From contig CAMKOM010000011.1 of assembly GCA_946414435.1 (NCBI GenBank), forward strand, positions 19,408 to 83,407: a stretch of 64,000 nt of DNA, written 5' to 3'. Position 1 is the stretch's first letter. Every line of letters starts with the position of its first letter. Shown here piece after piece: positions 16,762-41,087 of the stretch. The translations under genes and the position numbers were made by a program. Under the pieces are notes generated by a model, which saw only the letters and a program-made list of their open reading frames with translations, had not been told where the DNA came from and ran no database searches. The DNA comes from an uncultured Bacteroidota bacterium (GTDB taxonomy: Bacteria > Bacteroidota > Bacteroidia > Bacteroidales > SZUA-534).

Positions 16762-16780
16762 TTTAGTACGGATTTAATGA

Positions 16781-18467: not shown

Positions 18468-18479
18468 CACATTCATTTT

Positions 18480-18871
18480 GGGGTTGATTGGATTTGACAG
18501 CAAGATGAAAAGGTGGGTAAGCACGTCGGGCGCAGTGAAACCGGCCCGTAAATCCCGGACACAAAACTATAACTGGCGAAAATTCTTACGCTCTTGCCGC
18601 CTAATCGAAGTATAGTAGATTGGCCTAATCCCGGTTCAAGGAGCTGGGACAAGACGCATCGCGGAAGCCCTTGTCTTGAGGCTCGCCGATTCTGATGTGC
18701 AGCAATTCGGGACTGGCTCGCATTAGCCTCGTAATGCGGGTGAGATTTTGAGGATAAGGTGCTGGTAGGTGGCTTTGATCCGGCCAGCGCACGAAAACCA
18801 AGTCGGAGCTAAGCGTGTAGAAAGCTCATGGTTTCCTTGTTTGGACCCGGGTTCAAATCCCGGCAGCTCCA
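18480..18871 (+). ncRNA. ssrA: tmRNA
   Basis: 5' GGGGTTGATTGGATTTGACAG, 3' T-arm CCGGGTTCAAATCCCGG-CAGCTCCA; tag ORF 18575-18604 GENSYALAA*; CCA not encoded. Confidence 0.96.
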
Positions 18872-18873
18872 CG

Positions 18874-20126: not shown

Positions 20127-20127
20127 A

Positions 20128-21861
20128 ATGCACCTTAAGAGTTTATTTGTCTTTTTGTCAATGATGTTACCATATATGTTGTATTCACAAGAATTATCTG
20201 GAATTACAGAGAATGAGCCGGTTACAATAAACGGCGGCATCAATGTGAATGGAGTGTTTTATCATAGCAAAGACACATTGGCAACGCGGGAACCATTCTC
20301 TTATGTTGTGTCTGGCAATATCAATTTGAATCTGTATAATGTGGTCAACTGCCCGATAACTTTTACGTATTCAAACTATAAAGCCAATTGGTCGCAACCA
20401 TTCAACTTCAATCAATTCGGGATGACACCATCATATAAATGGATAAAAACATATATCGGATATAACTCAATGTCGTTTTCCGACTATACATTAAGTGGGC
20501 ACCAGTTTTTGGGCTTTGGGATAGAAGTCTCTCCCGATATTCCTTGGAAATACGCTGCAATGTACGGACGATTGTTAAAACCTGTTGAGGAAGACACCAC
20601 AAATGAATACAACATTCCAGCATATGCAAGATATGGTTATGCTACAAGCGTTGAGTATTCGGGTTATGGCAACATTAAACTTGTTTTGTTTAAAGCGTGG
20701 GATGATGAAGGCTCTTTGTCAGAACAACCTGTTAAAACCCTGCTTTATCCTAAAAGCAATCTGGCGTTAAGTATAAGCGTGTCAGAGCCTATAGGAGAGC
20801 GCTTGATGTTTGACGGGGAATTTTCCACTTCGGCTTTGAATGCCGATACAAGAAACAAAGAAGAAAAAGATGGCGAGCATATTTTCAAGGTTACAAGATT
20901 TTTACAAAAAAACACAATATCAACAGTGTATTATTGCGCATACAAGGGGGCTTTGAAATATACGGGTAACGGGTACGGACTTGGAGTTTCATACGAAAGA
21001 GTAAATCCTGGATACGAGACATTGGGAGCGTACTATTTTACAAATGATTTCGAGAATATTACGTTCGATGCATCAACAACTTTGCTGAAAGAGACATTGA
21101 ACATAAACGGCCGAATAGGATTGCAACGCGATGATCTAGATGGAACAAATTCTTCGAACACAACTAAGATCGTCGGAAGCCTGAATATGCAGTATGTCAT
21201 GAGTCAAAAAACATGTTTATCGCTGAATTACTCGAATTTTACTGGCTATACATTTATTAAAAGTGAATTTGATGACATTAACGCAACCGATCCATACCAA
21301 AACGTTGATACGCTGAAGTTTACGCAGATTAATCAGTCTGTTTCAGCCAATATATCGCACCGGTTGGGAAATGTTGAGAACAAAGATCTACAACAAACAA
21401 TAAATGTCAACGCAACCTTTCAGAATCAGACTATGCAACAAAACAAATTGCATACACCGGGAACAAGATTTTACAACGGGAATGTTTCTTACAATGTGAA
21501 CGTGCAAAATTTGAAGCTGGGAATGTTCTGTTCTTTAAATGCCAACTACAGCGAGATCCCAGATATGGATGACGCCTTCACTATTGGCCCTACGATAGGA
21601 GGCAACAAAAATTGGTTTGATGATAAATTGAAGTTAACAGTTTCCATGTCATATAACGATGAACTGATAACCAAAAACAATTCGGAAGTATGGATATTCA
21701 GGGCAGGATGTTCTTATAAATTAAAGGAACATCATCAATTTGACATGTCGTTTTCAGAACAAAACAGACAAGCAAAAGATCAGGGAAGAGTCAACGACCT
21801 GACATTTACTATAGGATATAAGTATAACTTTAATGTTAAATACAGTGAGATTTTCAAGTAA
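20128..21861 (+). CDS. Putative outer-membrane beta-barrel protein (cluster gene 2)
   Basis: Signal peptide ending LYS|Q; alternating amphipathic strands; C-terminal LTFTIGYKYNF resembling a BAM beta-signal; start set at ATG 20128. Confidence 0.7.
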   Translation: MHLKSLFVFLSMMLPYMLYSQELSGITENEPVTINGGINVNGVFYHSKDTLATREPFSYVVSGNINLNLYNVVNCPITFTYSNYKANWSQPFNFNQFGMTPSYKWIKTYIGYNSMSFSDYTLSGHQFLGFGIEVSPDIPWKYAAMYGRLLKPVEEDTTNEYNIPAYARYGYATSVEYSGYGNIKLVLFKAWDDEGSLSEQPVKTLLYPKSNLALSISVSEPIGERLMFDGEFSTSALNADTRNKEEKDGEHIFKVTRFLQKNTISTVYYCAYKGALKYTGNGYGLGVSYERVNPGYETLGAYYFTNDFENITFDASTTLLKETLNINGRIGLQRDDLDGTNSSNTTKIVGSLNMQYVMSQKTCLSLNYSNFTGYTFIKSEFDDINATDPYQNVDTLKFTQINQSVSANISHRLGNVENKDLQQTINVNATFQNQTMQQNKLHTPGTRFYNGNVSYNVNVQNLKLGMFCSLNANYSEIPDMDDAFTIGPTIGGNKNWFDDKLKLTVSMSYNDELITKNNSEVWIFRAGCSYKLKEHHQFDMSFSEQNRQAKDQGRVNDLTFTIGYKYNFNVKYSEIFK

Positions 21862-24685: not shown

Positions 24686-24718
24686 TTAATGAAATTATGA
24701 ATTAAAGTAAAAACAGGA

Positions 24719-26758
24719 ATGATGTCGCATAACTATAAGTGCAATATAATCAACTGTATATTCACATTTGTTTTTGCCTTGTTATCAGTATCGATAAAAG
24801 CAGAAAACAAAGATATTGTCATAATGTCATCGGTTGACAATGAGATAGTGCGTTTGCGTTGGAGTCCTATAAACCACGAATTATGGCAGGTGGCTAACAA
24901 ATACGGTTATACTTTGGAACGCTATATATTCGACAAAAAGAAAAGTATGACAATGGAACGGTCTGATGTTTATAGACCATTATCAATAAGCGAATGGAGA
25001 ATAATTGCCGACACTAACGACAGAGCGGCCATAGTTTCAGAAGCAATGTTTGGCGAAAATTTCGAAATAGCCAATGAAGACACATCCGCGCTTCGAATGA
25101 CAAATGTCGCAAAAGAGCAGGACATGCGTTTTTCGTTTGCAATGCTTATGGCTGCGCAGGATTTCGATCTTGCTTGCAAAATGGGCGTTGGTTCATTGCA
25201 GAAAATTGAACCGGGCAAAAAATATATGTACAAGGTTTTTATAAACGCCCCCGATTCAATTGTGAAATGTGATACCGGTAGTTGCATTGTCACTAGTAAT
25301 GACATGTCGCAATTGCCCGATATACTCAGTTTGAATGCCGTGTATGTAAACGGCCGAGTTGAATTACGCTGGCCAAGGGCTACTAACGAAGACTATTATG
25401 CAGGCTACCATATCGAGCGCTCGTCTGATTCAGTAAATTATAAGAGAGTCAACAAATCGATGTTTGTACCTTTTGAAAGCGTGGCAAATGAGCAGAATTA
25501 CACATTCAGCGATACAGTTAACAATAAAACGGACGCCAGGTATTATTACAGAATCCAAGGTGTGAACTTTTTTGGCGAGTATAGCAAATATTCGCCTGTT
25601 GCCGCCGTATCAACTTATAAACCTATTACTGAAACCCCATATATTACTGAACTCGAAGATGCAGGTGGGGGAAATATTCGAGTAACATGGGAATTCCCTG
25701 TTGACGAGCAGCAACAACTGAGCGGATTCCAAATCTTGGTGTCGGATTATGTTGCCGACAACTATATGCCTATGCTCAACGATTTGTTACCATCGGAAAC
25801 ACGCCAGTGTGTGGTGCCAACGGTTGGCCCGTCGAATTATGTTATTGTTGCCGCATACGACAAGAGTGGTATTGAGTATTTGTCGATGCCGAAATTCATC
25901 CAGCCGATTGACAGCATTCCGCCCAAAGCACCTGTGGGATTAAAAGGCAGCATGAACAGCGAAGGTGTGGTTTCATTGGATTGGACGGCCAACACCGAGC
26001 CCGACATTGCCGGGTATCGTGTGTTTTACACTACCGATAAATATATGGACTATACCAATCTTACAAACAGGCCTATTACCGAAAACCATTTCGAATATAA
26101 ATTCCCATTGAACTGGCTCAACAGGAATATATATGTTACAGTGCTTGCCGAAGACGCATTCTATAACTTTAGCGATTTCTCCGACACCATAGCAGTAAAA
26201 GTGTTCGACACCATACCTCCATCGCCGGCAGTGTTCCGCAGCTATGAAAGCACCGATTCGGCCATTTGCATGGAGTGGGTGAATAGCTCGAGCTCCGATC
26301 TAATGGCTACTCGCCTTGTACGGACCGACGGAGCAAACGCCGACACTCTGTTAAGCTTTAAAGACGAACACACACAGTTTTGTGATTCCGGCGCAAAATC
26401 CGATAAGAGATATGAGTACACAATTGTGTCGATTGACAGTGCCGGAAATAAATCGTTGTCGAACACCATAGCTGCCACAGGCAAGCACAAACCTTATAAT
26501 GTTACACTCAAGGTGAAGTTTGACGCCGGCGAGAATGCCATGGTGCTTAGCTGGGACAATGACGACGAAAAGCAAACAAGCGCATATATATACAAAGCTG
26601 CAAACGGAGGGAAGCTATATTTGTTTAAGACAATTAGTGGCGAAGAAACCACTTTTGTTGATAGAGATGTTGAAATAAACAGGCCTTATAGCTATAGAGT
26701 AAAAGTAAAACTTGAAAATGGCAAAACAGCCATAACTAAAACTGTTAACACTCAATAA
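24719..26758 (+). CDS. Fibronectin type III domain protein (cluster gene 4)
   Basis: Repeated FN3 signatures: V.LRW...GY.IERS...YYYRIQG; PPKAP.GL...LDW...IAGYRVF; YEY.IV..D.AGN.S. Confidence 0.85.
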   Translation: MMSHNYKCNIINCIFTFVFALLSVSIKAENKDIVIMSSVDNEIVRLRWSPINHELWQVANKYGYTLERYIFDKKKSMTMERSDVYRPLSISEWRIIADTNDRAAIVSEAMFGENFEIANEDTSALRMTNVAKEQDMRFSFAMLMAAQDFDLACKMGVGSLQKIEPGKKYMYKVFINAPDSIVKCDTGSCIVTSNDMSQLPDILSLNAVYVNGRVELRWPRATNEDYYAGYHIERSSDSVNYKRVNKSMFVPFESVANEQNYTFSDTVNNKTDARYYYRIQGVNFFGEYSKYSPVAAVSTYKPITETPYITELEDAGGGNIRVTWEFPVDEQQQLSGFQILVSDYVADNYMPMLNDLLPSETRQCVVPTVGPSNYVIVAAYDKSGIEYLSMPKFIQPIDSIPPKAPVGLKGSMNSEGVVSLDWTANTEPDIAGYRVFYTTDKYMDYTNLTNRPITENHFEYKFPLNWLNRNIYVTVLAEDAFYNFSDFSDTIAVKVFDTIPPSPAVFRSYESTDSAICMEWVNSSSSDLMATRLVRTDGANADTLLSFKDEHTQFCDSGAKSDKRYEYTIVSIDSAGNKSLSNTIAATGKHKPYNVTLKVKFDAGENAMVLSWDNDDEKQTSAYIYKAANGGKLYLFKTISGEETTFVDRDVEINRPYSYRVKVKLENGKTAITKTVNTQ

Positions 26759-26797: not shown

Positions 26798-29700
26798 ATG
26801 AATAAGATTAAGAATTCTGTAAGAAAACAACTCCTGTTGGCTGGTTCGTTGCTGATGTGTATCGTGACTTATGGCGGTATTCCTTCGAAGTTGCCTGGAA
26901 TGCTAAAGGCCATGGTTGGCACTCAAAATACGTATGTGTATTCGCCTAACACACCAATACTAATTGAGGAAGTTTCTTCACAAAACCATCGTGTTATTGC
27001 GATAGAATCGCATGGAATAAAAAAATATGGTGATAGCTTTTATACTTATACTTTTGCGTTTACGTTTGAATCATATAATGGCACACAGAGGGTTGTGGAT
27101 AATTTGAATGGAATGCAAGACCATACACCTCAAGATTTAGATATGTATATGTGTTATGATACAGACATTCCCAATATAATAATAAATCAAGTTTCGTATA
27201 AGTCTAATGGAGAAGTTATAATTGGTGATTATATAACAAAATATGGGAATTTACATTTAGGATTTAATAATTCTTTTCAGATAAAAGGCGAGCCCTATCA
27301 ACAAGTTGTTGTTCTTCCATTGATGGGATCATCCGAAAAATATAAATTTTTATATAAAAGTTACAATAAAAGTTATAATGAAAATTACAAAGAATATATC
27401 GGTTCGCTCAGTGGCGTAATTAGTAAGAGTGCGCCGGTTACTGCGGGCGATAGGGTGTATTTCAGCGCTGATAAAAATGGCGAGGGTGTAGATATTGCTG
27501 TTTTTGTGAAAAATGGTTATTATTTTACGGGTTTAACAACCAAATATGAGGGGAAAGATTCTGACGGGAAGCATGGTGTATATTCTTTTGAAATGCCATT
27601 ATGTAGCGATATATACGTGTTTTCATATGTTGAAAGCACGGAAGTTGATGCTGATGGGGACACGAGAACTCGGACATATTATAGCAGCAATTATAAGAGG
27701 TTCACTCCAACAGTTTATCCTAAGCCAACCTACACGTTTGAAAATGCCACCGAAAAAGGAGGAGTGTTGTATATCCATCCTAGGAAGAGTAGTTTTAGTA
27801 TTAAAAATACTACAAGTGGTTCTATAAAAATGGGTTTTAATGCAAGCGGCACAATTTCCGGAGAACAGATAAGTAGTAATGGAAAAAAAACATTTAATAA
27901 AAGTGATTACAGTAATGGCGCGAAGTACATCCTTAACATAGAAGCTGTTGGGGGAGGAAAATTAAAAAAAGAAATCACTGTTAAATATTTGGAGCAATGG
28001 GGAGAAAGTTTTGATATGTGCGATGCGAAAGTAACATTGACAGCACCTCCGTATTTGCCGGATAATATTTCGCCGGTTCTTACCATTGTTACCACTAATG
28101 CACAAGGTCAAACGGGTGGAAATACTGGATCTTTTGGGAAAACCTATAATTTAAATAGAGAACCTTATAAATACAAATATGTAATAAATTATTATAAAAA
28201 CAATGAATCGATTTTCGTTGTAACCAAGGAATTTTCATTTCCGAGTAAGCTAGAATATGTTTCAGAACCAGCGGGGAAAGTTTTCAAAGGCTGTATTAGA
28301 GCATCTGACAATACAAGCATTTCGGTAAATGTGAAAGGCGGCTCAGGGACGTATAATTATTTTATCAACGGTCAAAATGTGAAGTCTGGGACAAGTGACA
28401 AGTCATATGTATTACAGCCATCAGTGGGCAATGATTATAAAATAAAAGTAACCGATTCTAATAATTGCAGTACAGAGGAAAAAACGGTTAATGTAAAAAT
28501 AGATAGCCCGTTTGATTTTACAATTGTGCCCAAAAAAACTAATGGTTATGATATAGCATGCAATGGAGGAAAAGGCACTCTAACGTTTAGCATAAAAGGT
28601 GGTACTGGTGGGTATACATATAATGGTGATCCGATATCTAATGGTGCTTCATTAAGTAGAAGTGGGGTCGGTCCACATTCTTTTACAATATCCGATAGCA
28701 GGGGGTGTAGTGAAACCCATAGCATTACTCTCACACAACCGGCAGAACTTAAGATTACCAAATTGGACTCCATCAGGGCGGATTGCAAAGAAGCAAATAA
28801 TGGTAAAGTAGAAGTTACAGCTTCGGGTGGCGTAGGAACGTTAATGTATCATTTGTCAAATAATTCGGACGGAACAATAGATAGGAATGATGGAATATTT
28901 ACAGGTTTAGGGGTAAAGTCGTACACTTTGAGCGTGACAGACGCAAATAATTGTGCTTCTCCGGAGACGACAGTTACGGTTGGTAGCAATCTTAAATTGG
29001 AAATAGCAAAAATAGAACCTGCAGAGTGCTACGATGAAAGACTTGGTTCAATAACTCTGGCTCCTAAATTTAAGGATGGGTTTAGTTTCAATTATTGGTT
29101 AAACGGCGAGGAGGTAAATGGGCCAAAAATCGTGAACGTGGAAGCAGGTGATAATTATAAAGTTAAAGTGAAGCCAGTTGGTTCAGATTGTTTTGCAGAG
29201 TTGGGTGGTATTCAAGTTGGTGGTCCCACAGAACCTCTGCAAATAGAAACAATAGACATAACACGTTGTTCAAAAACCGATTCAAATGATGGTGAATTAA
29301 GTGTAACGCCCCAAGGCGGAACAGGAGAATATAAGGTGAGTATAAAAGACAAGGAGGGTAATGATGTTAAGGATAGTAAAAAACTTTATCCGGGCGATTA
29401 TTATGTAACTATAACCGATGCCAATGAATGTGTTTATTCGAAAAAAGATCCAATATCAATCCCGAGTCCCACAAAAGATTTAGGTTTTATAGATACAATA
29501 ATCCAACATGTTACATGCAATGGAGGAGACACTGCGAAAATAACAGTATATGCTGACGGAGGATGGCCATACCCTAATGGGGGTTATAAATATACACTTA
29601 TCAATAGCAATAACAAGAAGTTGTACGATAATGTATTATCTAATAAATCATACACATTTTCTAAATTGACGGCAGGCCATTATAAGGTGATAGTAACAGA

Positions 29701-32700
29701 TGAAATGAAAGTTGCTGATACTATTAGTGTGGAAGTCAAAGAACCTGATCCTTTGTCAGCTAGTAGTGAAGTGACAAAAGAAATCAGTTGCCCGGGCAGA
29801 AATGACGGCAAAGTTACAGTAACAGTGAGTGGAGGCACAGCTGGTTACACTTTGTCATTTGACAACGAACCATACACCACCAACAAAACAAAAGAAATCG
29901 ACGGTATTTCTGCAGGCACACACCAGTATAAAGTTATCGATGCGAACAAATGTGAATATTCGTCAACGGTTGAAGTTGACGAGCCAACAGCCATAGAGCT
30001 TAAGGCAAATGCTGCTGGTGAGTTATATAATGGTTACAACATCTCATGCAACGGAGAAAAAACGGGCATAATAGTTGTTTCTGCAACAGGCGGAACATCC
30101 GGTTACCAATTCTCGATTGATGACGGACCGTTTACCGCCCAATACGGGGAAAACGCCCAACACACATTCAGCGGTATAGGAGCCGGGGAACACAATATTA
30201 CGGCGAAAGACGGTCATGGGTGTCCCGCCTCTCTTCCTGCAAAAGTGAAATTAAAACAACCTGATCCCATTGTAATAAAAGAAAAAACCAAAACACAGCC
30301 CTTGTGTTATGACAGCATTAATGGCGAAATAACAGTTATAGTGTCAGGCGGTATTTCAACTCAAGATTATAACTATAGTTTGAATGGGGTATATGATGGC
30401 AGTGAAGGTGGTGAACACACATTTGAAAACATAGGGGCGAAAGCCGACCACAAAGTGTTGGTTACAGACGCCAACGGTTGTAAAGCTGAGACGAGTATTA
30501 AATTAGGCCAGCCTGCGGAATTGACAGCATCTGTCAGCAATGTGAAAAACAACTTGTGCAATGGAGACAAAGAAGGGAGCATAACGTTTACAATAAGTGG
30601 AGGAACGGGCTCGTACTATTATGCATTGAACGGCGCGAATAAAATTGAGTTTGGCAATGACAATACCATCAGCGGGCTGCCGGCCAAAAACGCACATTCC
30701 ATCGTGGTGTCAGACGCGCATGAGTGCAAGGCCGATGCTATAGAACAAAAAATTACTGAGCCTGATAAAATCGTGGCCAGAGCCATTTTGAATGACTATA
30801 ACGGGAAAAATATCAGATGCAATGGTGGTGTGGACACGGCAGTGATTAATATAGAAGGAGGTGCAGGCGACAACTTCTCAACCACACTGGGAGGAATCAC
30901 CAAAAACGGGAAATCTGTCGAGTTCGACAATCTGAAGGCAGGGGAATATGGCTATAAAGTTGTTAATGTCAACGGCGGCAAGAGTTGTGTTAAAGAATTC
31001 TCATTTGAGATGAAGCAGGCGGACGCCGTGGCATTCAGTGGCTTTGCTTCCACCGACGCCAAATGCCATGGAGTGTCGAATGGCGAATTACAAGTGAATG
31101 TAACCGGAGGAGTAAAGAGCTATGCATGTGAAATCACCGACCTGGCAGGAAACAGCGTCAACACGGCCACATCAAGCAGCGGCATCTATCTCTATGACCG
31201 CCTTGCAGTAGGCAGCTACGAGTTTAAAGTCACCGATGCCAACGGTTGTGCGGTAAGCAAAGGATTCCCAATCAAGCAACCTGCGCCGCTAACCGTTTCG
31301 ATAGCCAATCCGAAAAATGTAGATTGCAAAGGTGCCAACACGGGTGAGGTTTCAGCCGTTGCTACAGGCGGATCGGGGTCGTACAAATACAAGTGGAGCA
31401 ACGGCATGACAGGGCAAAGCATACAGAATTTGCTGGCCGGGGAGTATTCGGTTATGGTTACTGATGCCAATAACTGCCAATCGGAAGTAGATGAAAATGG
31501 AGTGAAGGCGCAGACCACCATTGACGAGCCTGCTTCGGCATTAACAATGCTGGAGCCAGTATACGCCAATCCGACATGCAGCTATAACAAGGATGGGGAA
31601 ATCACCATCAATGTCAGTGGCGGCTGGGGCGGATATGAATACACTCTGAATGGTGTTTCTTACGGAAGTAATAAGATAGAAGGCTTGGATGAAGGGACAT
31701 ATACGGCAAAGGTTAAAGATGCCGGGGGCTGTGAAGTTTCCACCAATGACATTACGTTGAAGAAGCCTGAAGCTTTGTCGTTTGAAAATAAAATCGGCAC
31801 AATAATCTGCAAAGGCGGAGCAACCGATGTGACCATAACTTCGGCGTCGGGAGGCACTGGAGGCAATTATTCGTATTCAATTGATGGGGGAAACACCTGG
31901 CAGTCCGGCACCACTTTTGCCAATGTTGTAAGCGGCAGTTACATATTGAGAATGAAAGACGGTAATGAGTGCCTGGCAACAGATAAAGAGATTACTGTCA
32001 CCGAGCCGGAATCATTGGTCTTGAAAGAAGATGTAAGGCATAATTATAACGGCAGCACCCATAAAGCCAACGGCAAGATAACCGTAACGCCGCAAGGCGG
32101 TGTAATGCCATATTCGTACCAATGGAAAGACACAACCGTCACAAGTCAGGAATTGGATAACATCGGTTTCGGAATTTACACGATCATCGTCACTGATAGT
32201 TTGGGCTGTGTCAAAACCGGCACATATTATATCAACGATAACAACCCGACGCCTGAAGTTGTTGACGCGATATGTCCGGAGGGCACAGAAGGATCAATAC
32301 GCTTTGGCGATACGGTTAAATGCACAAAGGTGGAATGGTACAACGCCAGCACCGAGGAGCTGTTGCCGCAATCCGGCACAAAGACAATCACAGGCCTGCC
32401 GAAGGGCATTTACAAGGCGAAACTGTTCAACGACACGCAGGTGACATATATATATGCCGAGGTGAAAGCCCCCGACAGTTTGAAGTACGCCACAAGCCAG
32501 CGTAATATTGATTGCCATGGCGACAATACAGGTATGGCATCAGTGAGCTTTACGGGCGGAGTGGTACCGGTGAGCGTGGTTTGGAAAAATCAGAGCGATG
32601 ATGAAATCAGCCATAGCCAAACGATTGAAAATCTGATAAAAGGAAAATACACGGCATATATTTCCGACGCCAAGAACTGCCAGTCGAGCAGCCAGGCGCT

Positions 32701-35338
32701 TGAGTTTGACATCACGGAGCCGGCAGAGGCGTTTGTGTTGGCCGAGAGCGCTCACAATGATGTGAAGTGTCATGGTAATAATGATGCAGTTGTGGGGCTG
32801 AGCGTATCCGGCAACCAGGGAGCGGTGACATATTTCCAAGACGAAGCGGCGATACCGTCGAACACGGCGAACTCATTATATGCGGGCGCCTATACGTTCT
32901 ATGCTGTTGATGAGAAGAATTGTCAGACTCAGCCATTGAATGTTACAGTCAGCCAGCCTGATCCGTTAAGCTCGTCGGTTAAAACCATTATGCCAATAAA
33001 ATGCGCGGCGGAGACGGGCAGCGTTGAGGTTGAAGCGGAAGGCGGCACTGCACCCTATTCATACAAGGTGTTGGAGCAGACTGAGTTTAGATTGTCGCCG
33101 GTGTTCGACGGGCTGACAACCGCCGATTATAAGTTTGTGGTGAAGGACAACAACAACTGCCACGACACCGCATCTTATCAGTTGACAGAACCCGAGCAGC
33201 TTGTAATCACGGGCAGCAAACTGAAAGACGAGTACTGCGGTCACAGCGACGGCACTATAAGTGTTGATGTGGAGGGCGGAACTGGCGGTTACGACATACG
33301 GTGGTCCGATTACCAGACGGGAGAGTTGGCAAGCGGTTTGCCTGCGGGCAGTTATATGGTATCCGTATATGACGAGAACCGATGCCTTGCCACAGAGACA
33401 TACGATATTAAGGACATTCCGGCCCCGGTTATCTCAATAAAGAGCATTGATTCGACAAAATGCTACGGCAGTGCCGACGGCGTTGCCGAGCTGAACGTAA
33501 GTCTGGGCACGGGGGCGATAGCATACCATTGGGAGACGGAAACGACCGGCGTCCCGTATTCCGGCAAGCTTAAGGCCGGACAGCAGAGTGTGGTTGCCGT
33601 TGACGAAATAGGCTGCGCCGATACTGCTCAGTTCACAATGCCCCAGCCCGACTCGATGAAGATAGAGATAGCTGTTGCGAACCCACTCTGTTTCAACGAC
33701 AATTCAGGCGAACTGACAGCCGCTGTCTCAAATTACAAGACGGGTTTGAGTTATAAATGGGACAACGGTGTTGCCGGGAGCGAAAACCGGGGTTTGTATG
33801 CCGGCACATATGGAGTGAGCGTTACAAACGCCAACGGCTGCGTGGCTAAAAAGAGCGCCACACTTGTCTATCCGGCAAAGATAACCATTAAGAAACTGGC
33901 GATTGCCGACACCAAGTGTGACCAACCCAACGGCAGCGTAACAGTCACGGCTACCGGCGGAACAGGAGTTTTGAAGTATGGGGTGAACATGGGAGCTGTG
34001 GCAGCGGCCAATAAAATTGAAGGTCTGCCGTCGGGCAACCACAAGCTGACGGTTGTTGACGATAACCAGTGCTCGATTGACACGACCGTACATGTCGGAG
34101 CGAATGTACCGCCAGTGTTAGTGATAAACACCCGGGATGATGTCAAGTGTCATGGTGAAAGCAATGGCAAGGTATCAGTTGGAGTGGAAGGCGGACGGAC
34201 GCCGTTTGTCTACAGCTGGGACAATGGTGACCGCACCACCATGTCAGCGAAAAACGGGCTCGGAGTAGGGAGTCACAAGGTGTACGTATTTGACGGCTTC
34301 GGGTGCTCCGACACACTTGATTTCGCAATAGAGGAGCCCTATGAGTTAGAGATATACGAGAGCGGCAGCACCGATCCGGTGTGCTACGGATACTCCAACG
34401 GCCAGATTGTTGCGGGAGTTATGGGCGGAACCGCACCTTACACTTATCAATGGGGGGACAGGCAGAGCACAGCCAAGGCGACCGGACTAGCCGCCGGCAC
34501 GCATTATGTGAATGTGACCGACAAGAACGGATGCAAGGCGAAGAGATACTTCACCCTTAGCAATCCCCAGCCTGTTGTGGTGGACATACCCGAAGTGATA
34601 AGCATTTGCTCAAACCAGACCGCGGACATTGACGCCGGGCACGAAGGCAGCTTCCACTACTGGAGTTCGGCAAACGGTTTCGAGTCTGTAGCGCAGAACA
34701 TCAGCGTCAACAAGAAGGGCACATATGTGGTTACAGTCACCACACTTGACGGGTGCATAGGGTCAGACTCCACCTTTGTTAATGTATCGGAAAAGGAAAT
34801 CAACGCGAACTTCCTGCTGCAGTCCGACGCTTATGTGGGCGACACCATTGTGATGATAGAGATATCGTGGCCGATACCCGAGAGCATAGAGTGGTCGTGT
34901 CCCGAGGGCATGACCGTGATCAGCGACTCGGGCGACGAGATAGAGATGGTGGCGACAAAGGAGGGTGTTTACGATGTTGGGCTCACCACCTATAACGACA
35001 TCTGCACGGAGCAGACATACAAGAGCATAGTGGTTAACCCTGTAGCCCAGAAACCTGCACCGCGCAAGCTCATGGCGCAAAAAATCATCAAAGAGGTCAA
35101 GGTGTATCCGAACCCGGCGGCGGGGCCGTTCAATCTCGAGATAGAGCTGAGCGAGGAGCATGACGTGACAATAGAGATAGTGCACATGTCGGGCACGCTT
35201 CAGAAGAAGAGACACATGAAAGGTGACCGGCGGTATGTGCTCAATTTCAGCAACACAGATCTAAATGCGGGCATAAACACGATAACGGTGATAGCCGGTG
35301 ACGAGATAGTAACGAAGAAGTTAGTCATAATAAGATAA
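26798..35338 (+). CDS. Giant SprB-repeat surface protein with T9SS type A CTD (cluster gene 5)
   Basis: 2846 aa; >20 repeats of C.G...G.I.V...GG..PY.Y.W...L.AG.Y.V.VTD.NGC; C-terminal VKVYPNP...TKKLVIIR. Confidence 0.88.
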   Translation: MNKIKNSVRKQLLLAGSLLMCIVTYGGIPSKLPGMLKAMVGTQNTYVYSPNTPILIEEVSSQNHRVIAIESHGIKKYGDSFYTYTFAFTFESYNGTQRVVDNLNGMQDHTPQDLDMYMCYDTDIPNIIINQVSYKSNGEVIIGDYITKYGNLHLGFNNSFQIKGEPYQQVVVLPLMGSSEKYKFLYKSYNKSYNENYKEYIGSLSGVISKSAPVTAGDRVYFSADKNGEGVDIAVFVKNGYYFTGLTTKYEGKDSDGKHGVYSFEMPLCSDIYVFSYVESTEVDADGDTRTRTYYSSNYKRFTPTVYPKPTYTFENATEKGGVLYIHPRKSSFSIKNTTSGSIKMGFNASGTISGEQISSNGKKTFNKSDYSNGAKYILNIEAVGGGKLKKEITVKYLEQWGESFDMCDAKVTLTAPPYLPDNISPVLTIVTTNAQGQTGGNTGSFGKTYNLNREPYKYKYVINYYKNNESIFVVTKEFSFPSKLEYVSEPAGKVFKGCIRASDNTSISVNVKGGSGTYNYFINGQNVKSGTSDKSYVLQPSVGNDYKIKVTDSNNCSTEEKTVNVKIDSPFDFTIVPKKTNGYDIACNGGKGTLTFSIKGGTGGYTYNGDPISNGASLSRSGVGPHSFTISDSRGCSETHSITLTQPAELKITKLDSIRADCKEANNGKVEVTASGGVGTLMYHLSNNSDGTIDRNDGIFTGLGVKSYTLSVTDANNCASPETTVTVGSNLKLEIAKIEPAECYDERLGSITLAPKFKDGFSFNYWLNGEEVNGPKIVNVEAGDNYKVKVKPVGSDCFAELGGIQVGGPTEPLQIETIDITRCSKTDSNDGELSVTPQGGTGEYKVSIKDKEGNDVKDSKKLYPGDYYVTITDANECVYSKKDPISIPSPTKDLGFIDTIIQHVTCNGGDTAKITVYADGGWPYPNGGYKYTLINSNNKKLYDNVLSNKSYTFSKLTAGHYKVIVTDEMKVADTISVEVKEPDPLSASSEVTKEISCPGRNDGKVTVTVSGGTAGYTLSFDNEPYTTNKTKEIDGISAGTHQYKVIDANKCEYSSTVEVDEPTAIELKANAAGELYNGYNISCNGEKTGIIVVSATGGTSGYQFSIDDGPFTAQYGENAQHTFSGIGAGEHNITAKDGHGCPASLPAKVKLKQPDPIVIKEKTKTQPLCYDSINGEITVIVSGGISTQDYNYSLNGVYDGSEGGEHTFENIGAKADHKVLVTDANGCKAETSIKLGQPAELTASVSNVKNNLCNGDKEGSITFTISGGTGSYYYALNGANKIEFGNDNTISGLPAKNAHSIVVSDAHECKADAIEQKITEPDKIVARAILNDYNGKNIRCNGGVDTAVINIEGGAGDNFSTTLGGITKNGKSVEFDNLKAGEYGYKVVNVNGGKSCVKEFSFEMKQADAVAFSGFASTDAKCHGVSNGELQVNVTGGVKSYACEITDLAGNSVNTATSSSGIYLYDRLAVGSYEFKVTDANGCAVSKGFPIKQPAPLTVSIANPKNVDCKGANTGEVSAVATGGSGSYKYKWSNGMTGQSIQNLLAGEYSVMVTDANNCQSEVDENGVKAQTTIDEPASALTMLEPVYANPTCSYNKDGEITINVSGGWGGYEYTLNGVSYGSNKIEGLDEGTYTAKVKDAGGCEVSTNDITLKKPEALSFENKIGTIICKGGATDVTITSASGGTGGNYSYSIDGGNTWQSGTTFANVVSGSYILRMKDGNECLATDKEITVTEPESLVLKEDVRHNYNGSTHKANGKITVTPQGGVMPYSYQWKDTTVTSQELDNIGFGIYTIIVTDSLGCVKTGTYYINDNNPTPEVVDAICPEGTEGSIRFGDTVKCTKVEWYNASTEELLPQSGTKTITGLPKGIYKAKLFNDTQVTYIYAEVKAPDSLKYATSQRNIDCHGDNTGMASVSFTGGVVPVSVVWKNQSDDEISHSQTIENLIKGKYTAYISDAKNCQSSSQALEFDITEPAEAFVLAESAHNDVKCHGNNDAVVGLSVSGNQGAVTYFQDEAAIPSNTANSLYAGAYTFYAVDEKNCQTQPLNVTVSQPDPLSSSVKTIMPIKCAAETGSVEVEAEGGTAPYSYKVLEQTEFRLSPVFDGLTTADYKFVVKDNNNCHDTASYQLTEPEQLVITGSKLKDEYCGHSDGTISVDVEGGTGGYDIRWSDYQTGELASGLPAGSYMVSVYDENRCLATETYDIKDIPAPVISIKSIDSTKCYGSADGVAELNVSLGTGAIAYHWETETTGVPYSGKLKAGQQSVVAVDEIGCADTAQFTMPQPDSMKIEIAVANPLCFNDNSGELTAAVSNYKTGLSYKWDNGVAGSENRGLYAGTYGVSVTNANGCVAKKSATLVYPAKITIKKLAIADTKCDQPNGSVTVTATGGTGVLKYGVNMGAVAAANKIEGLPSGNHKLTVVDDNQCSIDTTVHVGANVPPVLVINTRDDVKCHGESNGKVSVGVEGGRTPFVYSWDNGDRTTMSAKNGLGVGSHKVYVFDGFGCSDTLDFAIEEPYELEIYESGSTDPVCYGYSNGQIVAGVMGGTAPYTYQWGDRQSTAKATGLAAGTHYVNVTDKNGCKAKRYFTLSNPQPVVVDIPEVISICSNQTADIDAGHEGSFHYWSSANGFESVAQNISVNKKGTYVVTVTTLDGCIGSDSTFVNVSEKEINANFLLQSDAYVGDTIVMIEISWPIPESIEWSCPEGMTVISDSGDEIEMVATKEGVYDVGLTTYNDICTEQTYKSIVVNPVAQKPAPRKLMAQKIIKEVKVYPNPAAGPFNLEIELSEEHDVTIEIVHMSGTLQKKRHMKGDRRYVLNFSNTDLNAGINTITVIAGDEIVTKKLVIIR

Positions 35339-35348
35339 GACGCGGGTC

Positions 35349-38300
35349 ATGAAACGGTCAATATTACACATCATACTGTTGCTGTGGGCCATGCTGCCGG
35401 CGACGACAGCGCACTCGCAGTCCTATCCTGTTCAGTCAAACGTCTATGTGGTGGCGCCGTACAGCCAGACCTACAGCGACTACTATGCCGACGGCCAGCA
35501 GCGCATGTTTGTTAACATTCTGCTGAACGACATGTCGCAGGGACATCTTGACGTGGTGCTCCGGTTCAGCATAAAGAGCAACAACCTGAAGCTCACCAGC
35601 AAGCTTACGGGCAATGTGCAGCCGATAACCATCCACAGCGGGAAGATGTACCGAGTGGAGGGCTCGGAGCTGGCGCAGTATCTGAGGGTTGACGACATGC
35701 AGGCGGAGGGGCGTCTTGCGGGCGAGTTTCAGAAAAGCGGGAAGCTGCCCGAGGGGTATTACGAGATAAAGGTGGAGGTGGTGGAGTACTACCGCAGGGC
35801 CAACGTGTCGGCGCCGTCATATTCGACGATGTGGATAATGCAGCCCGAGGCGCCGGTGTGGACGATGCCACAGAACAACGCCAAGATAGACGCCATAAGT
35901 CCGCAGTTCATGCTTTTCGGGTGGATGATGACCGGCAACACATCGATGTTGCGAAACATTAAATACGAGTTCTCCATTTATGATAAGCCGGCAAGCATGA
36001 GCGCCGACGTGGTGGTGAAGACGTCCACCCCCATCTACAGTGAGGAGCTGACACAGCAGACGCTTGTGTACGGACCCGACAAGCCTTTGCTCGAGCTCGG
36101 GAAGGTCTATGCGTGCCGTGTTAAGGTGGAGGACGGAGACGGCTTAGTCAGCTTCAAGAACGACGGCTACAGCTCCACACTGGTGTTCAAATACGGAGAG
36201 GAGTGCGATCCTCCGACGCAGGTTACCATTACCGATATTACGAAAAAGGGAGCCACCGTGAACTGGGTGAGCGACCAGTCGCACAGCGGATACGATGTGG
36301 AGGTGAGGGAGCTGTCCGACGGCAAGAGCAGCGACTGGTTCACATGGAAAATCGACAAGCGCCAGTACAACTACGAGATAAAGCAGCTCTCGTCCGACAG
36401 CCGTTACGAGTGCCGAGTGGCCGCCGTATGCGGCCAGCGCTCGAACGGCATCCGTAGCGCATACACCGACCCTGTGGAGTTCAAGACATACGAGGCCGGG
36501 AACAAGAAATACAACTGCGGCGACCTTGTAGAGGCGTCAAAACCCACCAACCGTGTGCCATACCCCTATCTTGAGGAGGGCGACGTGATAACCGCCAACG
36601 GTTTTGTGTTCATTATTGAGTCGATATCGAAAGCCGGCGGGGGACTGTTCACGGGACAATGCTCGTGGTATATCAATTTGTGGGGAGTGAAGATATTGTG
36701 CGATTTCAAAGACATAAGCATAAACGTGACAAGGGAGCTCATAGGGGGCCAGATAGTGGCCTGTCACGACAAGGCACAGGTGAAGGCCTTCACCCGTCTG
36801 CAAAGCGCCGCATACATGCCGGCGGGCACACAGGTGCCAACGTCGTTCAAGGCCGACAAGATAATGACCATGACAGAGACCGTCGACTCGGTACGGATAG
36901 TAGACGGCGAGACACTGATATACGTTGCCGGCCAGAATCCGGTAAAGGTGTCGGCCACCGACAACGTGTTTGTCCAGTCGGCCGACGGCAACTACTACGC
37001 GGTGGAGGACGGCAAGGTCTATCCCAAGCCGTCGAACCTCGACAAAGACGGGAACCGCACACTGTCGTATAATCAGCTTATTACCGCCACATTCGGCTAC
37101 GACGACAACTTCGGCCGTCATGCGGGAGTTGACGCCTACAGCGATGAGAAAAAAGCGTTTGCTGCGCAGTACAGCCAGTATCAGCTTCACTCCGACGACG
37201 CCTACGCCACATGGATAGCCAAGAACCAGACCGCCGTGCCCATAGCCAGGGTGACAGTGAGCGGCGGCGACCGCACAGCCTTGCAGTTCCGCAATGGCGG
37301 GCAGGCAGTGGCAGTGAACAACGCCGCCGATGCCGACGCGCTCTATCTGCCTCTGACAGCCGACGGCCAGTACGACGCCTACTATACCACGCAGGACACG
37401 CACGGCGCCGATTTGGAGGTGATGGCAGGCCAGCTCAACGTGGTGTCGTATCCGCAGCAGAATATCAACGTATGCCTTGTTGAAGTGAACGGAGCAAGCT
37501 ACCCCCGTACAGCAAACGAGCTGTCGAACTACCTGAACGATGTGTTCGGCCAGGCGGTATTCGGAGTGAACCTGACCAAGACCTCTATTGAGGTTGACAA
37601 GTTCAACGGCACGCTCTCGGCCAGGGAGAGCGGTGCGCTTTCGGCGTACAATCCCGACATGAAGAAGCTGATAAAGAAGGTTAAGCGACTGCCTGACTAC
37701 AACAGCGATACTTACTACATTATGGTTGTTGCCAAGAGCGACAACTCGTCGCTGGCCGGATTCATGCCTGTGAACAGCAACTTTGGCTTTGTGTTTGCCG
37801 ACGCCTGCAACAGCACCGACATGCTTAACCGCACCATAGCCCACGAGCTTGCCCACGGCGCCTTCCACCTGTGGCATACCTTCAGCTCGAGCAACACCTA
37901 CACGGCACCGCAGGGCACCACAGCCAACCTTATGGACTACAACGGCACCAATGCTGAACTCTACAAATACCAATGGGACTATATCCACAACCCGCAGCAG
38001 GGCATTGTTAGGTGGATGGTGGATGAGGAGGAGAGTGAGGCGATTTTAAACAAAGATGTAATGCTTGCTTATTTAAAATCCATACACAACGCTAATGTTA
38101 AGTTTGTCGAAACTCTTGCATTGTCAATTGAAGCGGGATTCAATTTCAGTTTCAGCGGTGAAATAGAACTTGATGATGAGACAAGTTTGAGTTACTTGTC
38201 AATGTCGACATTCAGTAAAGGAACGGCAGGCGAAAAAATCATTGCCAACATTAAACCTTCAGAAAAAACGTGTGAATCCAAGAAGATAGATGACGAGGAA

Positions 38301-39035
38301 TATACGACTTACACATTTAAATCAACAAAATATGGAGATTTGCCCCCACTTGTGTTTACCGTTAAGAGTGATGAAACCACAATATTTGAAGAGTACGTAT
38401 TTAGGATTCTGACAATTGAAAAAGTACAAGAGTTGGCTGAAAAATCAGTTTCTCTTGCAAATGAATCAATGGATGCAAGCTCTATATGCAATGTCTGTAC
38501 ACGTACCGCCTTGTACTTTATCAAAAACGATTCTACTTTGTTCCCATATGAAGGTTCTGCGTTAAAGAAAACAGCAACTTCTTCAATTAGTTATGTGGAA
38601 GGTTACACAACCAATAATGGTCAAGCAAAGAAAATTCAGGAAGATTTTGAAGCAATGAAGTCTGAGTACGCGCGTGTTTTTGAAGAAATAAAAAAGGAAA
38701 ACGTTGAATCGTGGCAGCAATATTTTACCCGGTTGCAAGATATGGCAAGTGCAGGTGAGATTATCATTGGTGCAATGTTGAATAGCAATTCCACAGTTGG
38801 GCATGTTATGATGATAACACCCGGAGAAATGGCAGATGTATGGTATTTAGATGATGAAAATATAATCAATTACGTTTCCCAATATGGGAAAGGTTATTAT
38901 GATAGTGGTATAAAAAATGTTCCTATAGTAGTTGAATGCGGACAAGATGTAAGAAAATGGGATGCACCATTATGTACTAATGTGGATAGAAAAGGAGCGG
39001 TAGAACGTCTTAAATGGTATAGATATAAAAAATAA
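35349..39035 (+). CDS. TANFOR-like / FN3 / zinc metallopeptidase protein with variable C-terminal domain, putative polymorphic toxin (cluster gene 6)
   Basis: Signal peptide AHS|Q; YPVQ..V..PYS...SDY...LPEG.Y N-terminus; FN3 (PPTQV...VNW...YECRV); HELAHGAFHLWH with NLMDY Met-turn; AT-rich tip with C..GHV motifs. Confidence 0.75.
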   Translation: MKRSILHIILLLWAMLPATTAHSQSYPVQSNVYVVAPYSQTYSDYYADGQQRMFVNILLNDMSQGHLDVVLRFSIKSNNLKLTSKLTGNVQPITIHSGKMYRVEGSELAQYLRVDDMQAEGRLAGEFQKSGKLPEGYYEIKVEVVEYYRRANVSAPSYSTMWIMQPEAPVWTMPQNNAKIDAISPQFMLFGWMMTGNTSMLRNIKYEFSIYDKPASMSADVVVKTSTPIYSEELTQQTLVYGPDKPLLELGKVYACRVKVEDGDGLVSFKNDGYSSTLVFKYGEECDPPTQVTITDITKKGATVNWVSDQSHSGYDVEVRELSDGKSSDWFTWKIDKRQYNYEIKQLSSDSRYECRVAAVCGQRSNGIRSAYTDPVEFKTYEAGNKKYNCGDLVEASKPTNRVPYPYLEEGDVITANGFVFIIESISKAGGGLFTGQCSWYINLWGVKILCDFKDISINVTRELIGGQIVACHDKAQVKAFTRLQSAAYMPAGTQVPTSFKADKIMTMTETVDSVRIVDGETLIYVAGQNPVKVSATDNVFVQSADGNYYAVEDGKVYPKPSNLDKDGNRTLSYNQLITATFGYDDNFGRHAGVDAYSDEKKAFAAQYSQYQLHSDDAYATWIAKNQTAVPIARVTVSGGDRTALQFRNGGQAVAVNNAADADALYLPLTADGQYDAYYTTQDTHGADLEVMAGQLNVVSYPQQNINVCLVEVNGASYPRTANELSNYLNDVFGQAVFGVNLTKTSIEVDKFNGTLSARESGALSAYNPDMKKLIKKVKRLPDYNSDTYYIMVVAKSDNSSLAGFMPVNSNFGFVFADACNSTDMLNRTIAHELAHGAFHLWHTFSSSNTYTAPQGTTANLMDYNGTNAELYKYQWDYIHNPQQGIVRWMVDEEESEAILNKDVMLAYLKSIHNANVKFVETLALSIEAGFNFSFSGEIELDDETSLSYLSMSTFSKGTAGEKIIANIKPSEKTCESKKIDDEEYTTYTFKSTKYGDLPPLVFTVKSDETTIFEEYVFRILTIEKVQELAEKSVSLANESMDASSICNVCTRTALYFIKNDSTLFPYEGSALKKTATSSISYVEGYTTNNGQAKKIQEDFEAMKSEYARVFEEIKKENVESWQQYFTRLQDMASAGEIIIGAMLNSNSTVGHVMMITPGEMADVWYLDDENIINYVSQYGKGYYDSGIKNVPIVVECGQDVRKWDAPLCTNVDRKGAVERLKWYRYKK

Positions 39036-39041
39036 AGTATC

Positions 39042-39959
39042 ATGAAAAATAAAAATGCTTGTTGTGGACTTGTTTTAATGTTTATAAATCTATCAGTTTA
39101 TTGTCAAAATATTGAAAAGATAGATGTTGTTAATGAAAGTGTCAAGCCTTTTATTGCTTCCAAATGTAATCATTACACAAAAGAAGGAATACATCCATAT
39201 TGCATTCAATGTAATGGTATAGTATCTGTATATGATAAAAGTCACAGTTTTGGAGAAGGTAAAATTTTGGATTCGGTTGATGTGATTTTTAACTACAATA
39301 ATGATGTTGAATATGTTGTATGCCGAACAACCGCAAAACTTATTCATGTCAGTTTTTCAAAATCCAAGCCTTTAATGATTATTAACTATCTTGATGATAG
39401 ACCTGAATATTATGACGCAATACTTGATGACTATTTTTGGATTTATAATCTTGATAGCCTTGCTAATGGTATATTATACAAAGACTCTATATATTGCAAA
39501 TATTGTGATGATGGATATTTGATTGGTGATAAGTTGTTTTTTACCCGTTCAAACGAACGAGATGATTTTCAAGGCGGATATTGGCTTACAGATATTTATA
39601 TGTCACCATTTGACAACATTGCCGATTCGGTTGTAGTGGCTCGCAATTTTGGCATTCGAGCCATAAGTTCCGACGGTAAATATATTTTAGCCCAAAACAA
39701 GAACACTATTAGCCAGTATTCTTGCGCCATAATCGATGTGGAGCAAAAAAAATATCAAGTGCTTTTAGGGCGTAATTATTGTAATCGTACTGTCATATAT
39801 TCGGATGAGGAACAAAAATTTGGCTTTATTTTTGGCAAAAAAATCGTGTATGTTGATATGCCAAAAACATTTCCGTTTGATGCTCTTGAAAAGAAAGACA
39901 TATTTTGGCCAAGGCCAAAAGGATTAGAAGAAAAATTTAAAAAGCCACCATTAGAGTAA
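39042..39959 (+). CDS. Secreted/periplasmic protein, putative immunity protein (cluster gene 7)
   Basis: 6 nt after gene 6 with the same AT-rich composition as its tip; signal peptide VYC|Q; propeller-like ISSDGKYIL motif. Confidence 0.6.
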   Translation: MKNKNACCGLVLMFINLSVYCQNIEKIDVVNESVKPFIASKCNHYTKEGIHPYCIQCNGIVSVYDKSHSFGEGKILDSVDVIFNYNNDVEYVVCRTTAKLIHVSFSKSKPLMIINYLDDRPEYYDAILDDYFWIYNLDSLANGILYKDSIYCKYCDDGYLIGDKLFFTRSNERDDFQGGYWLTDIYMSPFDNIADSVVVARNFGIRAISSDGKYILAQNKNTISQYSCAIIDVEQKKYQVLLGRNYCNRTVIYSDEEQKFGFIFGKKIVYVDMPKTFPFDALEKKDIFWPRPKGLEEKFKKPPLE

Positions 39960-40019
39960 ATATTTGAATAATCTACGTATCCATCGTGGCATTGTGGGTT
40001 TATATTTGGGCGCCCTTAG

Positions 40020-40092
40020 CGTAGATACGCGGCGCGCCGCGTATCTACAGGCGGCGAGAGCGGGCATTGGTGCGGCATAGAAAAATCTGCGT
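40020..40092. repeat. REP-like GTAG palindrome plus flank, copy 1
   Basis: Perfect 28-bp palindrome GTAGATACGCGGCG|CGCCGCGTATCTAC (40021-40048) followed by AGGCGGCG...GGGCATTGGTG. Confidence 0.75.
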
Positions 40093-40181
40093 ATGTGGGG
40101 TTGGACTGAAAAAAGGCGACCTTCTTTTTTGATTTTTGTGCCAATTATCTAATTTTGTATAAAAATTTAAAAAACAGGAAA

Positions 40182-40889: not shown

Positions 40890-40960
40890 CGTAGAAACGC
40901 GGCGCGCCACGTTTGTGCAGGCGGCGGAGGTTGGGCATTGGTGAGTGGAGAAAATTCCGT
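40890..40960. repeat. REP-like GTAG element plus flank, degenerate copy 2
   Basis: CGTAGAAACGCGGCGCGCCACGTTTGTGCAGGCGGCG...GGGCATTGGTG, a direct repeat of 40020-40092. Confidence 0.7.
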
Positions 40961-41013: not shown

Positions 41014-41014
41014 G

Positions 41015-41087
41015 TGACCCGCCAGGGGATCGAACCCTGGACCCACAGATTAAGAGTCTGTTGCTCTACCAGCTGAGCTAGCGAGTC
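41015..41087 (-). tRNA. tRNA-Lys (CTT)
   Basis: GACTCGCTAGCTCAGCTGGTAGAGCA-ACAGA-CTCTTAA-TCTGT-GGGTCCAGGGTTCGATCCCCTGGCGGGTCA; TACCTTTG -7 element at 41095-41102; CCA not encoded. Confidence 0.96.

Follow-up and report, generated by a model that had tools for sequence, protein, structure and literature searches.

Why does a peptidase-like domain sit in the middle of a long toxin-like protein, directly ahead of a point at which the composition of the gene changes abruptly? The question is raised by one gene in a window of 64,000 nucleotides (nt) from an uncultured Bacteroidota bacterium (Bacteroidales, SZUA-534; assembly GCA_946414435.1, contig CAMKOM010000011.1, positions 19,408 to 83,407 of the forward strand). 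The gene occupies 35349..39035 of the window and encodes a protein of 1228 amino acids (aa), here called P0001; the product of the next open reading frame, 39042..39959, is P0002. Genes and their parts lie on the forward strand of the window unless stated otherwise. Loci fetched for comparison carry L numbers, genomes G numbers, and public sequencing runs, used in the form of Logan contigs, X numbers. In brief, our answer is as follows. P0001 is predicted to be a TANFOR-like polymorphic antibacterial toxin of a Bacteroidales member which possesses a type IX secretion system (T9SS). A recombination junction between its body and its tip at ~38040 is strongly supported by sequence comparison. With a probability of about 55%, the domain ahead of this junction would be an active zinc peptidase which, after export, frees the adaptor and the toxin at a conserved acidic motif.

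The junction and the exchangeable cassette

The gene is a single, uninterrupted reading frame, as an earlier note on this DNA had maintained, and the GC counts given there are exact: positions 37861-37920 contain 37 G or C in 60, positions 38041-38100 contain 17 in 60. In 200-nt windows the GC content falls from 0.55-0.57 (37700-37999) to 0.34-0.39 (38000-38999), continues at 0.26-0.39 through the next open reading frame to ~39900 and recovers at ~39900-40100. The drop sits in the third codon positions. GC content at these positions (GC3) is 0.763 in codons 1-898 and 0.300 thereafter, and the maximum-likelihood two-segment change point is located after codon 898, i.e., after the last residue of the acidic boundary motif DEEESEA (38022..38042). 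We designate this point, 38042/38043, as junction J1. Of 31,939 sliding positions in the 3.30-Mb genome, only 45 show a GC step of 0.211 or more from one 1-kb window to the next; a chance origin is unlikely. The genome has a mean GC content of 0.474. Measured against its 1-kb windows, the toxin body exceeds the 95th percentile and the tip together with the next gene ranges at about the 1st to 5th percentile. Both sides of the break are atypical for the genome, the body GC-rich, the tip GC-poor.

Among 5.8 billion proteins searched, 26 matched, the query itself being one of them. Five close full-length homologues with 62-91% identity cover only 73-77% of P0001. All five read through ...YQWDYIHNPxxGIVxWxVxDEExxx (in P0001 the string YQWDYIHNP is at 37968-37994) and continue with unrelated sequence. 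In 30-residue windows identity is 66-86% at residues 871-900 and 10-20% at residues 901-930 in each of the five, the collapse being located at residue 898/899. These end points of homology come from searches with the full query; matches ending at 895-898 in a search with a query cut at residue 898 were not counted as ends of homology. A conserved body joined to unrelated C-terminal tips, the arrangement by which polymorphic toxins are recognized, is present in all five close homologues.

The DNA of other organisms marks the same position. Two orphan modules on metagenome contigs (L015 and L018) are ~87-88% identical to window positions ~37851-38040 and unrelated to it on both sides; their nucleotide similarity stops at 38037-38040. 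Over 34500-37597, contigs from run X5 show 0-7 differences from the window. Another X5 contig, of 975 nt, follows the body at 37695-38032 with 26 differences, has a loose end at 38032 and from there on is unlike the window; by our own reading its frame stays open past this point. X5 is more divergent over the last 340 nt ahead of J1, which suggests that the left crossover occurred inside the peptidase coding region. From run X2 a contig of 2146 nt covers 38001-40056 with 12 differences. Runs X2, X5 and X9 have one common loose-end consensus just before 40127, and we place the right-hand limit of the variable cassette near this position. Stretches without contigs (X2 34500-37916; X5 and X9 ~38118-39926) were not used as evidence. 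The earlier note had placed a recombination junction for tip exchange at ~38040, and the ends of protein and nucleotide homology and the diverging contig all bear this out.

A search for metagenome loci led to 55 fetched loci, 54 of them with a match; many are from a few sample series and hence are not independent. In 26 of the 54 an in-frame stop is located at most 51 codons upstream of a match which begins inside the peptidase domain. The matches of these truncated modules start near aa 694, 749, 787 and 804, and at 828-837. Of the remaining loci, four are long or full-length and 24 are interrupted by the end of the contig. Some modules form tandem arrays: L022 has four partial copies, each with a tip and a small open reading frame, and L016 has three. 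In G022, a genome of the same family, a full-length gene and its small gene are followed by two more truncated modules on the same strand, and a second contig of G022 carries three modules in a row. Orphan modules, a further property by which polymorphic toxins are known, are present in metagenome loci and in related genomes. The genome of the window itself, when searched with the whole protein and with the 65-residue 3' segment, contains a single copy and no orphans.

Of the peptidase coding sequence the orphans retain no more than the 3' part, and it is this part that serves as the upstream homology arm in exchange. Further, the GC3 step from ~0.7-0.88 to ~0.2-0.35 recurs at the same point in the orphans of G014, of G002 and of L015; it is thus a property of the module pool and not of a single transfer. 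In related genomes and metagenomes the same body is combined with other cassettes and the same cassette with other bodies. The segment from 38043 to ~40127 is an exchangeable low-GC cassette which consists of an adaptor, a Cys/His end domain and a gene for an exported protein of 305 aa.

Three orphans start at the same point (L015 6218-7456; L018 5879-6223; L071, on contig C55 of G002, 1931-3550, minus strand). They possess nearly the same short leader in place of the HE of HExxH, and those in L015 and L018 also share upstream non-coding sequence. The shared start suggests the spread of a common truncation event or a preferred break site.

The tip itself is bipartite. A remnant in G014, a genome of the same genus (L072), is 63% identical to P0001 from aa 736 through DEEESEA to ~1019 and then diverges. 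It is an open reading frame directly after the gene for transfer-messenger RNA (tmRNA), i.e., in the corresponding genomic context, it starts at the equivalent of aa 736, and the gene which follows it bears no relation to P0002. In nine of the 55 metagenome loci the match to P0001 likewise extends only to aa 1018-1040. From the G014 remnant and these nine loci, we consider residues 899-1019 (38043..38405) as an adaptor subdomain which is common to tips with other end domains, and place a second junction, J2, near 38405.

The remainder of the tip, aa ~1030-1228 (38436..39032), is a rare Cys/His domain and presumably the toxin proper. In an alignment of its relatives, of which ~7 were found, C1047, C1050, H1152, E1196, C1197 and C1209 are invariant. 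It has no match in Pfam or NCBIfam, and a PDB sequence search yielded chance-level matches only. An hhalign comparison with Tae4, NlpC/P60 and C39_2 gave 0.2%, 0.04% and 0.4%; this comparison was powerless as the positive controls also gave 0.2%, and two of the NlpC/P60 alignment rows in it were mis-extracted. A free-standing version of 249 aa together with a P0002-like gene is located at L003 4907-7523 in a metagenome-assembled genome (MAG) of the Paludibacteraceae, where it adjoins a gene of the PD-(D/E)XK transposase family. On another contig of this MAG (L002) the end domain is fused to a toxin body.

P0002 (305 aa, 39042..39959) is encoded directly behind the toxin in low-GC sequence with a GC3 of 0.13-0.40. 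It has no Pfam or NCBIfam family. By eye, P0002 and its homologues have N-termini which resemble signal peptides or those of lipoproteins. In three of three loci with the same end domain a P0002 homologue is positioned directly downstream (54, 37 and 36% identity), and a different end domain is accompanied by a different downstream gene, the co-variation expected of an immunity gene. P0002 is thus a candidate immunity protein which travels with the end domain. As P0002 and its homologues appear to be exported, a target in the periplasm or envelope is indicated. Neither the two-module tip with J2 near aa 1019 nor the co-travelling candidate immunity gene was part of the earlier note, and the same holds for the published TANFOR class.

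Apart from these, Tae4 amidase domains end open frames of 1212 and 1605 aa in Bacteroidia (L073, on contig C184 of G243, and L081, on contig C52 of G157); these may be further members of the toxin class with a cell-wall amidase as tip.

The metzincin-like domain ahead of the junction

The pre-toxin domain extends from aa ~690 to 891 (37416..38021) and ends seven residues before J1, a position in which a releasing peptidase is expected. With residues 690-898 as the query, 1869 representative clusters match at E<=1e-3, of which 1325 reach E<=1e-10; most of these matches are located at about position 700-900 of proteins with 1100-2300 residues. Conservation was counted in the best 150 representatives, of which 146 cover the zinc-site motif, at an overall identity of ~40%. 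The motif, HELAHGAFHLWH, is at 37842..37877, where the earlier note had located it (the string begins at 37830 if the preceding RTIA is included), and comprises H832, E833, H836 and H843. HExxH with its general-base Glu is intact in 144 of the 146 and the third His is kept in all of them. The sequence NLMDY, likewise found at the position reported before (37926..37940), is a candidate Met-turn with M862 located 19 residues after the third His; 137 representatives have Met at this position and the other nine have Leu. Beyond the domain at least 150 residues follow in 122 of 136 representatives (median 525).

The classification as metzincin-like, proposed in the earlier note, holds in part. In favor are Pfam matches to M43 and reprolysin models in relatives: among 22 domain-only segments Reprolysin_5 scores above the gathering threshold in three, which are near-identical, and reprolysin or M43 models match at E<=0.1 in 14. 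Further, hhalign against a profile of five tip-located metallopeptidases from this toxin family, of which two are recognized by Pfam as M43/reprolysin-like, gave 99.1% (E 1.1e-18, 143 columns). What does not agree is the third His, which comes one residue late: in the hhalign alignment one residue is inserted behind the second His, and the family consensus, HELGHGxFxLxH, has the third His seven residues after the second, not six. The reference is the metzincin consensus H-E-x-x-H-x-x-G/N-x-x-H/D as given in PMC11674741. The layout which this source describes for pappalysins (M43) and reprolysins (M12B) appears otherwise similar: HExxH is on a helix which follows an N-terminal part rich in beta structure, and beyond it come a third His, a conserved Met at a distance of ~20 residues and a C-terminal helix motif. 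P0001 differs by the spacing H-x3-H-x6-H, by a Gly directly after the second His and by a very short C-terminal part. Other searches added little. A phmmer search of the PDB with the peptidase segment yielded no match at E<=10, a domain profile including flanks had one irrelevant match, the top PDB profile match was a spurious designed repeat protein, and no Pfam toxin-peptidase model matches the domain. We therefore describe it, with the caution due to a prediction, as a putative compact M43/reprolysin-related zincin with non-canonical spacing.

Between this domain and J1 an acidic motif is conserved. A run of at least three D or E at a fixed distance after an invariant K-x-Q-W-D exists in 123 of the 146 representatives; columns 892-895 are D in 71%, E in 54%, E in 66% and E in 78%. 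The sequences diverge two to four residues past the acidic run. Such a motif would suit a site of recognition or cleavage, and a flexible spacer would explain it equally well. Cleavage at the acidic linker, as suggested in the earlier note, is plausible since both the catalytic residues and the motif are conserved throughout the family.

The proposed sequence of events is the following. Export of the toxin would involve the SprB-like T9SS protein encoded just upstream and four companion proteins, and the body probably stays associated with the SprB-like protein on the surface. After export the metzincin-like domain, acting as a zinc endopeptidase, would cut its own chain or that of a neighboring copy at or next to the acidic motif, and this would free the adaptor and the toxin from the body. 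The adaptor may then take the end domain into the periplasm of the target cell, where the Cys/His domain would hydrolyze an envelope component; a role as an envelope hydrolase is proposed since the candidate immunity protein itself appears to be exported. We give the release step the probability of about 55% stated at the outset. A more far-reaching version is doubtful. In it, the domain and the acidic motif would constitute the obligatory release device of a distinct Bacteroidota toxin-delivery route, in which the toxin rides on the SprB-like T9SS protein with the four companions and is cut at the acidic motif, either on the surface of the cell or at the target, and in which the 3' coding part doubles as a recombination handle for independent swaps of adaptor and warhead.

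Several points weigh against release by this domain and against the class in which we place the toxin. The best Pfam metallopeptidase match of P0001's own segment has an E of only 0.076, and three of the four Pfam matches above or near cut-off are from near-identical sequences of related samples, i.e., are non-independent. The domain deviates from the extended metzincin motif HExxHxxG/NxxH/D. A clean profile run against the PDB found adamalysins, snake-venom metalloproteinases and an IgA protease at non-significant E values of 0.21-0.82. The same kind of domain is also terminal, and then presumably toxic, in some family members and need not process anything. Both the zincin fold and the release step are predictions, and the role of the tip as an envelope hydrolase is a guess. 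Finally, the toxin has no T9SS C-terminal sorting domain and its export route is conjectural, and with 12.6 bits its N-terminus does not reach the cut-off of 67 bits of the TANFOR model TIGR02542.

The presumed toxicity of terminal copies leads to a first alternative, in which the domain is an active peptidase with a substrate other than its own chain. It might cleave envelope proteins or peptidoglycan peptides of the target, process the SprB-like carrier or serve as a second warhead. Homologous domains do in fact occupy the extreme C-terminus, the position expected of a toxin, in P0007, P0099, P0158, P0168 and the L022 tip; many tips of the family attack the cell wall (M23, M15_4, SLT); and peptidase domains in polymorphic toxins are described both as releasing enzymes and as toxins in the text of PMC3482391. 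We nevertheless regard such a function as unlikely. In nearly all of the 150 best representatives the position of the domain is fixed directly before the variable region, and an acidic motif is conserved after it, a placement which suits a role in cis. Moreover, only one small gene follows the toxin, and a dedicated immunity gene, to be expected if the peptidase were harmful to kin, is missing.

In a second alternative the domain is enzymatically inactive. It would be a structural pre-toxin plug and a recombination handle, and the tip would be released by another protease or not at all. Non-enzymatic pre-toxin domains are a recognized category (e.g., PT-VENN and PT-TG), and the spacing of the zinc motif is non-canonical. 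The orphans keep only the 3' part of the coding region, and those in L015, L018 and G002 have lost the HE of HExxH; this shows that the DNA is preserved for something other than catalysis. Against a plug stands the conservation pattern itself: at ~40% overall identity the Glu persists in 144 of 146 representatives, all three His in 146 and the Met in 137. As neither a structural zinc site nor a recombination handle needs the Glu, its persistence makes an inactive domain quite improbable. The last alternative, that the GC break is an accident of composition or of amino-acid usage and no module boundary, can cite nothing beyond the variation of GC along the window from 0.34 to 0.57 and is refuted: the drop lies in third codon positions, the GC3 change point and the end of homology fall on the same codon, orphans from three other genomes or contigs show the step at the same place, and a natural contig diverges there.

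Toxin class and relation to known systems

The preferred reading, a releasing peptidase ahead of an exchangeable tip, presupposes a toxin of a known kind. The body of 898 residues is composed of a putative Sec-type leader, a TANFOR-like region, a fibronectin type III (fn3) domain, a middle region and the metzincin-like domain of ~200 residues. Inspected by eye, the first 23 residues show a basic n-region, a hydrophobic core and an A-x-S site. The fn3 domain is at aa 287-363 (36207..36437; Pfam PF00041, E 2.3e-9, 37.8 bits). For the TANFOR-like region, aa 27-150 (35427..35798), the match to TIGR02542 has an E of 0.22, and a library scan of P0001 at E<=0.1 yielded no match to this model. Among 20 homologues 12 match TIGR02542, all below cut-off, with 12.7-43.7 bits. 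The best of these is P0019, residues 26-154 of which score 43.7 bits, and P0001 residues 8-474 align with P0019 at 31% identity (E 1e-61). We call P0001 TANFOR-like because it remains below the cut-off yet aligns with a protein which matches the model; its region appears to be homologous but divergent. SprA (2436 bits) and GldK (587 bits) are encoded in the genome. The setting typical of the TANFOR class is thus present, both in the adjoining SprB-repeat gene, which encodes a T9SS sorting domain, and in the occurrence of a T9SS in this genome.

The tips of the family are diverse. Of 20 scanned homologues five have a recognizable tip: M43/reprolysin, toxin-deaminase, EndoU (twice) and ADP-ribosyltransferase, three of these five matches exceeding the Pfam cut-offs. 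In a second sample 11 of 36 representatives have a named tip (DUF5675 three times, M23 and C39_2 twice each, AHH, TNT, WHH/colicin-DNase and M15_4 once each). Among the tips of the two samples are domains of nucleases, deaminases, NADases, ADP-ribosyltransferases and cell-wall hydrolases.

Identity along the body is itself a mosaic. P0004 agrees with P0001 to 100% in residues 1-210, 241-360 and 661-690, to 93% in two intervening windows and to only 60-66% in residues 421-480; P0006 is 100% identical over residues 691-750 and 46-80% elsewhere. This points to additional recombination within the body. Antisense to the GC3-rich body there is an open frame of 483 aa (36537-37988, minus strand), most likely a by-product of codon composition and no gene.

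TANFOR-domain polymorphic toxins of Bacteroidetes were described by Jana, Salomon and Bosis in 2020 (PMC7073777), and a preprint lists TANFOR as a trafficking domain. According to PMC7073777 these toxins are large proteins with a Sec signal, fn3, polymorphic C-terminal toxin domains and a downstream immunity gene, and they are positioned directly behind a gene which encodes SprB repeats and a T9SS sorting domain, the genome being T9SS-bearing. P0001 shares this arrangement, with a putative Sec signal and a candidate immunity gene, and differs by its N-terminus, which scores below the TIGR02542 cut-off. The main text of PMC7073777, supplements aside, does not mention peptidase, protease, metallo-, pre-toxin, orphan or recombination.

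A second comparison concerns CdiA-CT and Rhs-CT, the C-terminal toxin regions of CdiA and Rhs proteins (PMC3150448; PMC9424206). As described there, a short conserved motif (VENN or DPxGL) marks the start of the variable toxin, 5'-truncated toxin/immunity modules with varying upstream homology form arrays downstream, and the tip consists of two parts, one for entry or as an adaptor and one which is the toxin. The present system is alike in each respect. CdiA-CT and Rhs-CT tips are released by proteolysis; in P0001 release is predicted. The two kinds of toxin belong to unrelated protein families with unrelated routes of secretion, and in P0001 the boundary is an acidic run after a zinc-peptidase-like domain. 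The third comparison is with the PVC-metallopeptidase of Zhang et al. (2012; PMC3482391), also a zincin-type HExxH domain just before a toxin domain. In that source it is proposed to free the toxin by autoproteolysis, and versions at the extreme C-terminus may be toxins. Its signature is HExxHxxQ...E (gluzincin-like), in contrast to the third His and the MDY of the M43/reprolysin-related domain in P0001. TANFOR is not named in the examined text of Zhang et al. (2012).

Thus, the system belongs to a published weapon class and is an ordinary member of it, albeit an unusually clean and informative one. In a literature search, supplements aside, we found no description of an internal peptidase-like domain, an acidic boundary, orphan arrays or a nested junction in TANFOR toxins. 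TANFOR toxins were proposed in 2020 as a T9SS-linked weapon class. The locus offers a mapped body/tip junction with natural swap variants and a second junction which separates adaptor from warhead. It also offers a conserved candidate processing enzyme, a candidate cleavage motif and four conserved companions, which make release and delivery testable. The end domain and its exported partner constitute a rare, unannotated candidate toxin/immunity pair.

The operon and its surroundings

The toxin gene is the sixth of seven tightly spaced genes (19206-39959) whose products have signal-peptide-like N-termini; the gaps are, in order, -17, -29, 33, 39, 10 and 6 nt. The first four genes (19206..26758) encode exported proteins of unknown family with 306, 583, 950 and 679 aa. 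Pfam and NCBIfam contain no match for them except fn3 in the last one (679 aa). All four have homologues beside a distant toxin in L005, in a different gene order (8070-9815 and 15942-22734), and the homologue of the 583-aa protein is directly upstream of the toxin in two distant loci, L005 and L019 (L019 8171-9886). The four companions are candidates for an export or assembly apparatus.

The fifth gene (26798..35338) encodes an SprB-repeat surface protein of 2846 aa (Pfam SprB, E 2.7e-126, 18 stretches) with a T9SS type A sorting domain (Por_Secre_tail, E 4.4e-7; TIGR04183, 26.4 bits at a cut-off of 23). Its GC content climbs from 0.34-0.39 in the first 3 kb to 0.53-0.54 in the last 2.3 kb, and it remains high in the adjoining toxin body. 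The SprB-repeat gene may thus be a mosaic as well, its head variable and its tail conserved.

The left neighbor of the operon is the tmRNA gene (18480..18872; ARAGORN; Rfam RF00023, 135.5 bits), of which each of the 15 other genomes of the genus has a copy with 94-97% identity; the right neighbor of the locus is a tRNA-Lys(CTT) gene (41014..41087, minus strand; ARAGORN and Rfam). The whole seven-gene operon is located between these two RNA genes. The gene left of the tmRNA gene in the window is found elsewhere in the other genomes of the genus, and the arrangement looks like a variable island at ssrA. No integrase was seen at the locus, and a direct repeat of the tmRNA 3' end was not found at its far side. 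A promoter and terminator scan around the junction gave counts at the level of shuffled sequence.

Beyond P0002 there is a palindromic element resembling a repetitive extragenic palindrome (REP-like) at 40020..40056, with a second copy at 40890-40926 and ~7 sites in the genome. The two GC-rich copies flank a small VapC (PIN) toxin gene and the open reading frame which precedes it. A sequence similar to this element is located downstream of the orphan cassettes in G002 and L018, and it is possible that the element provides the right-hand homology for cassette exchange.

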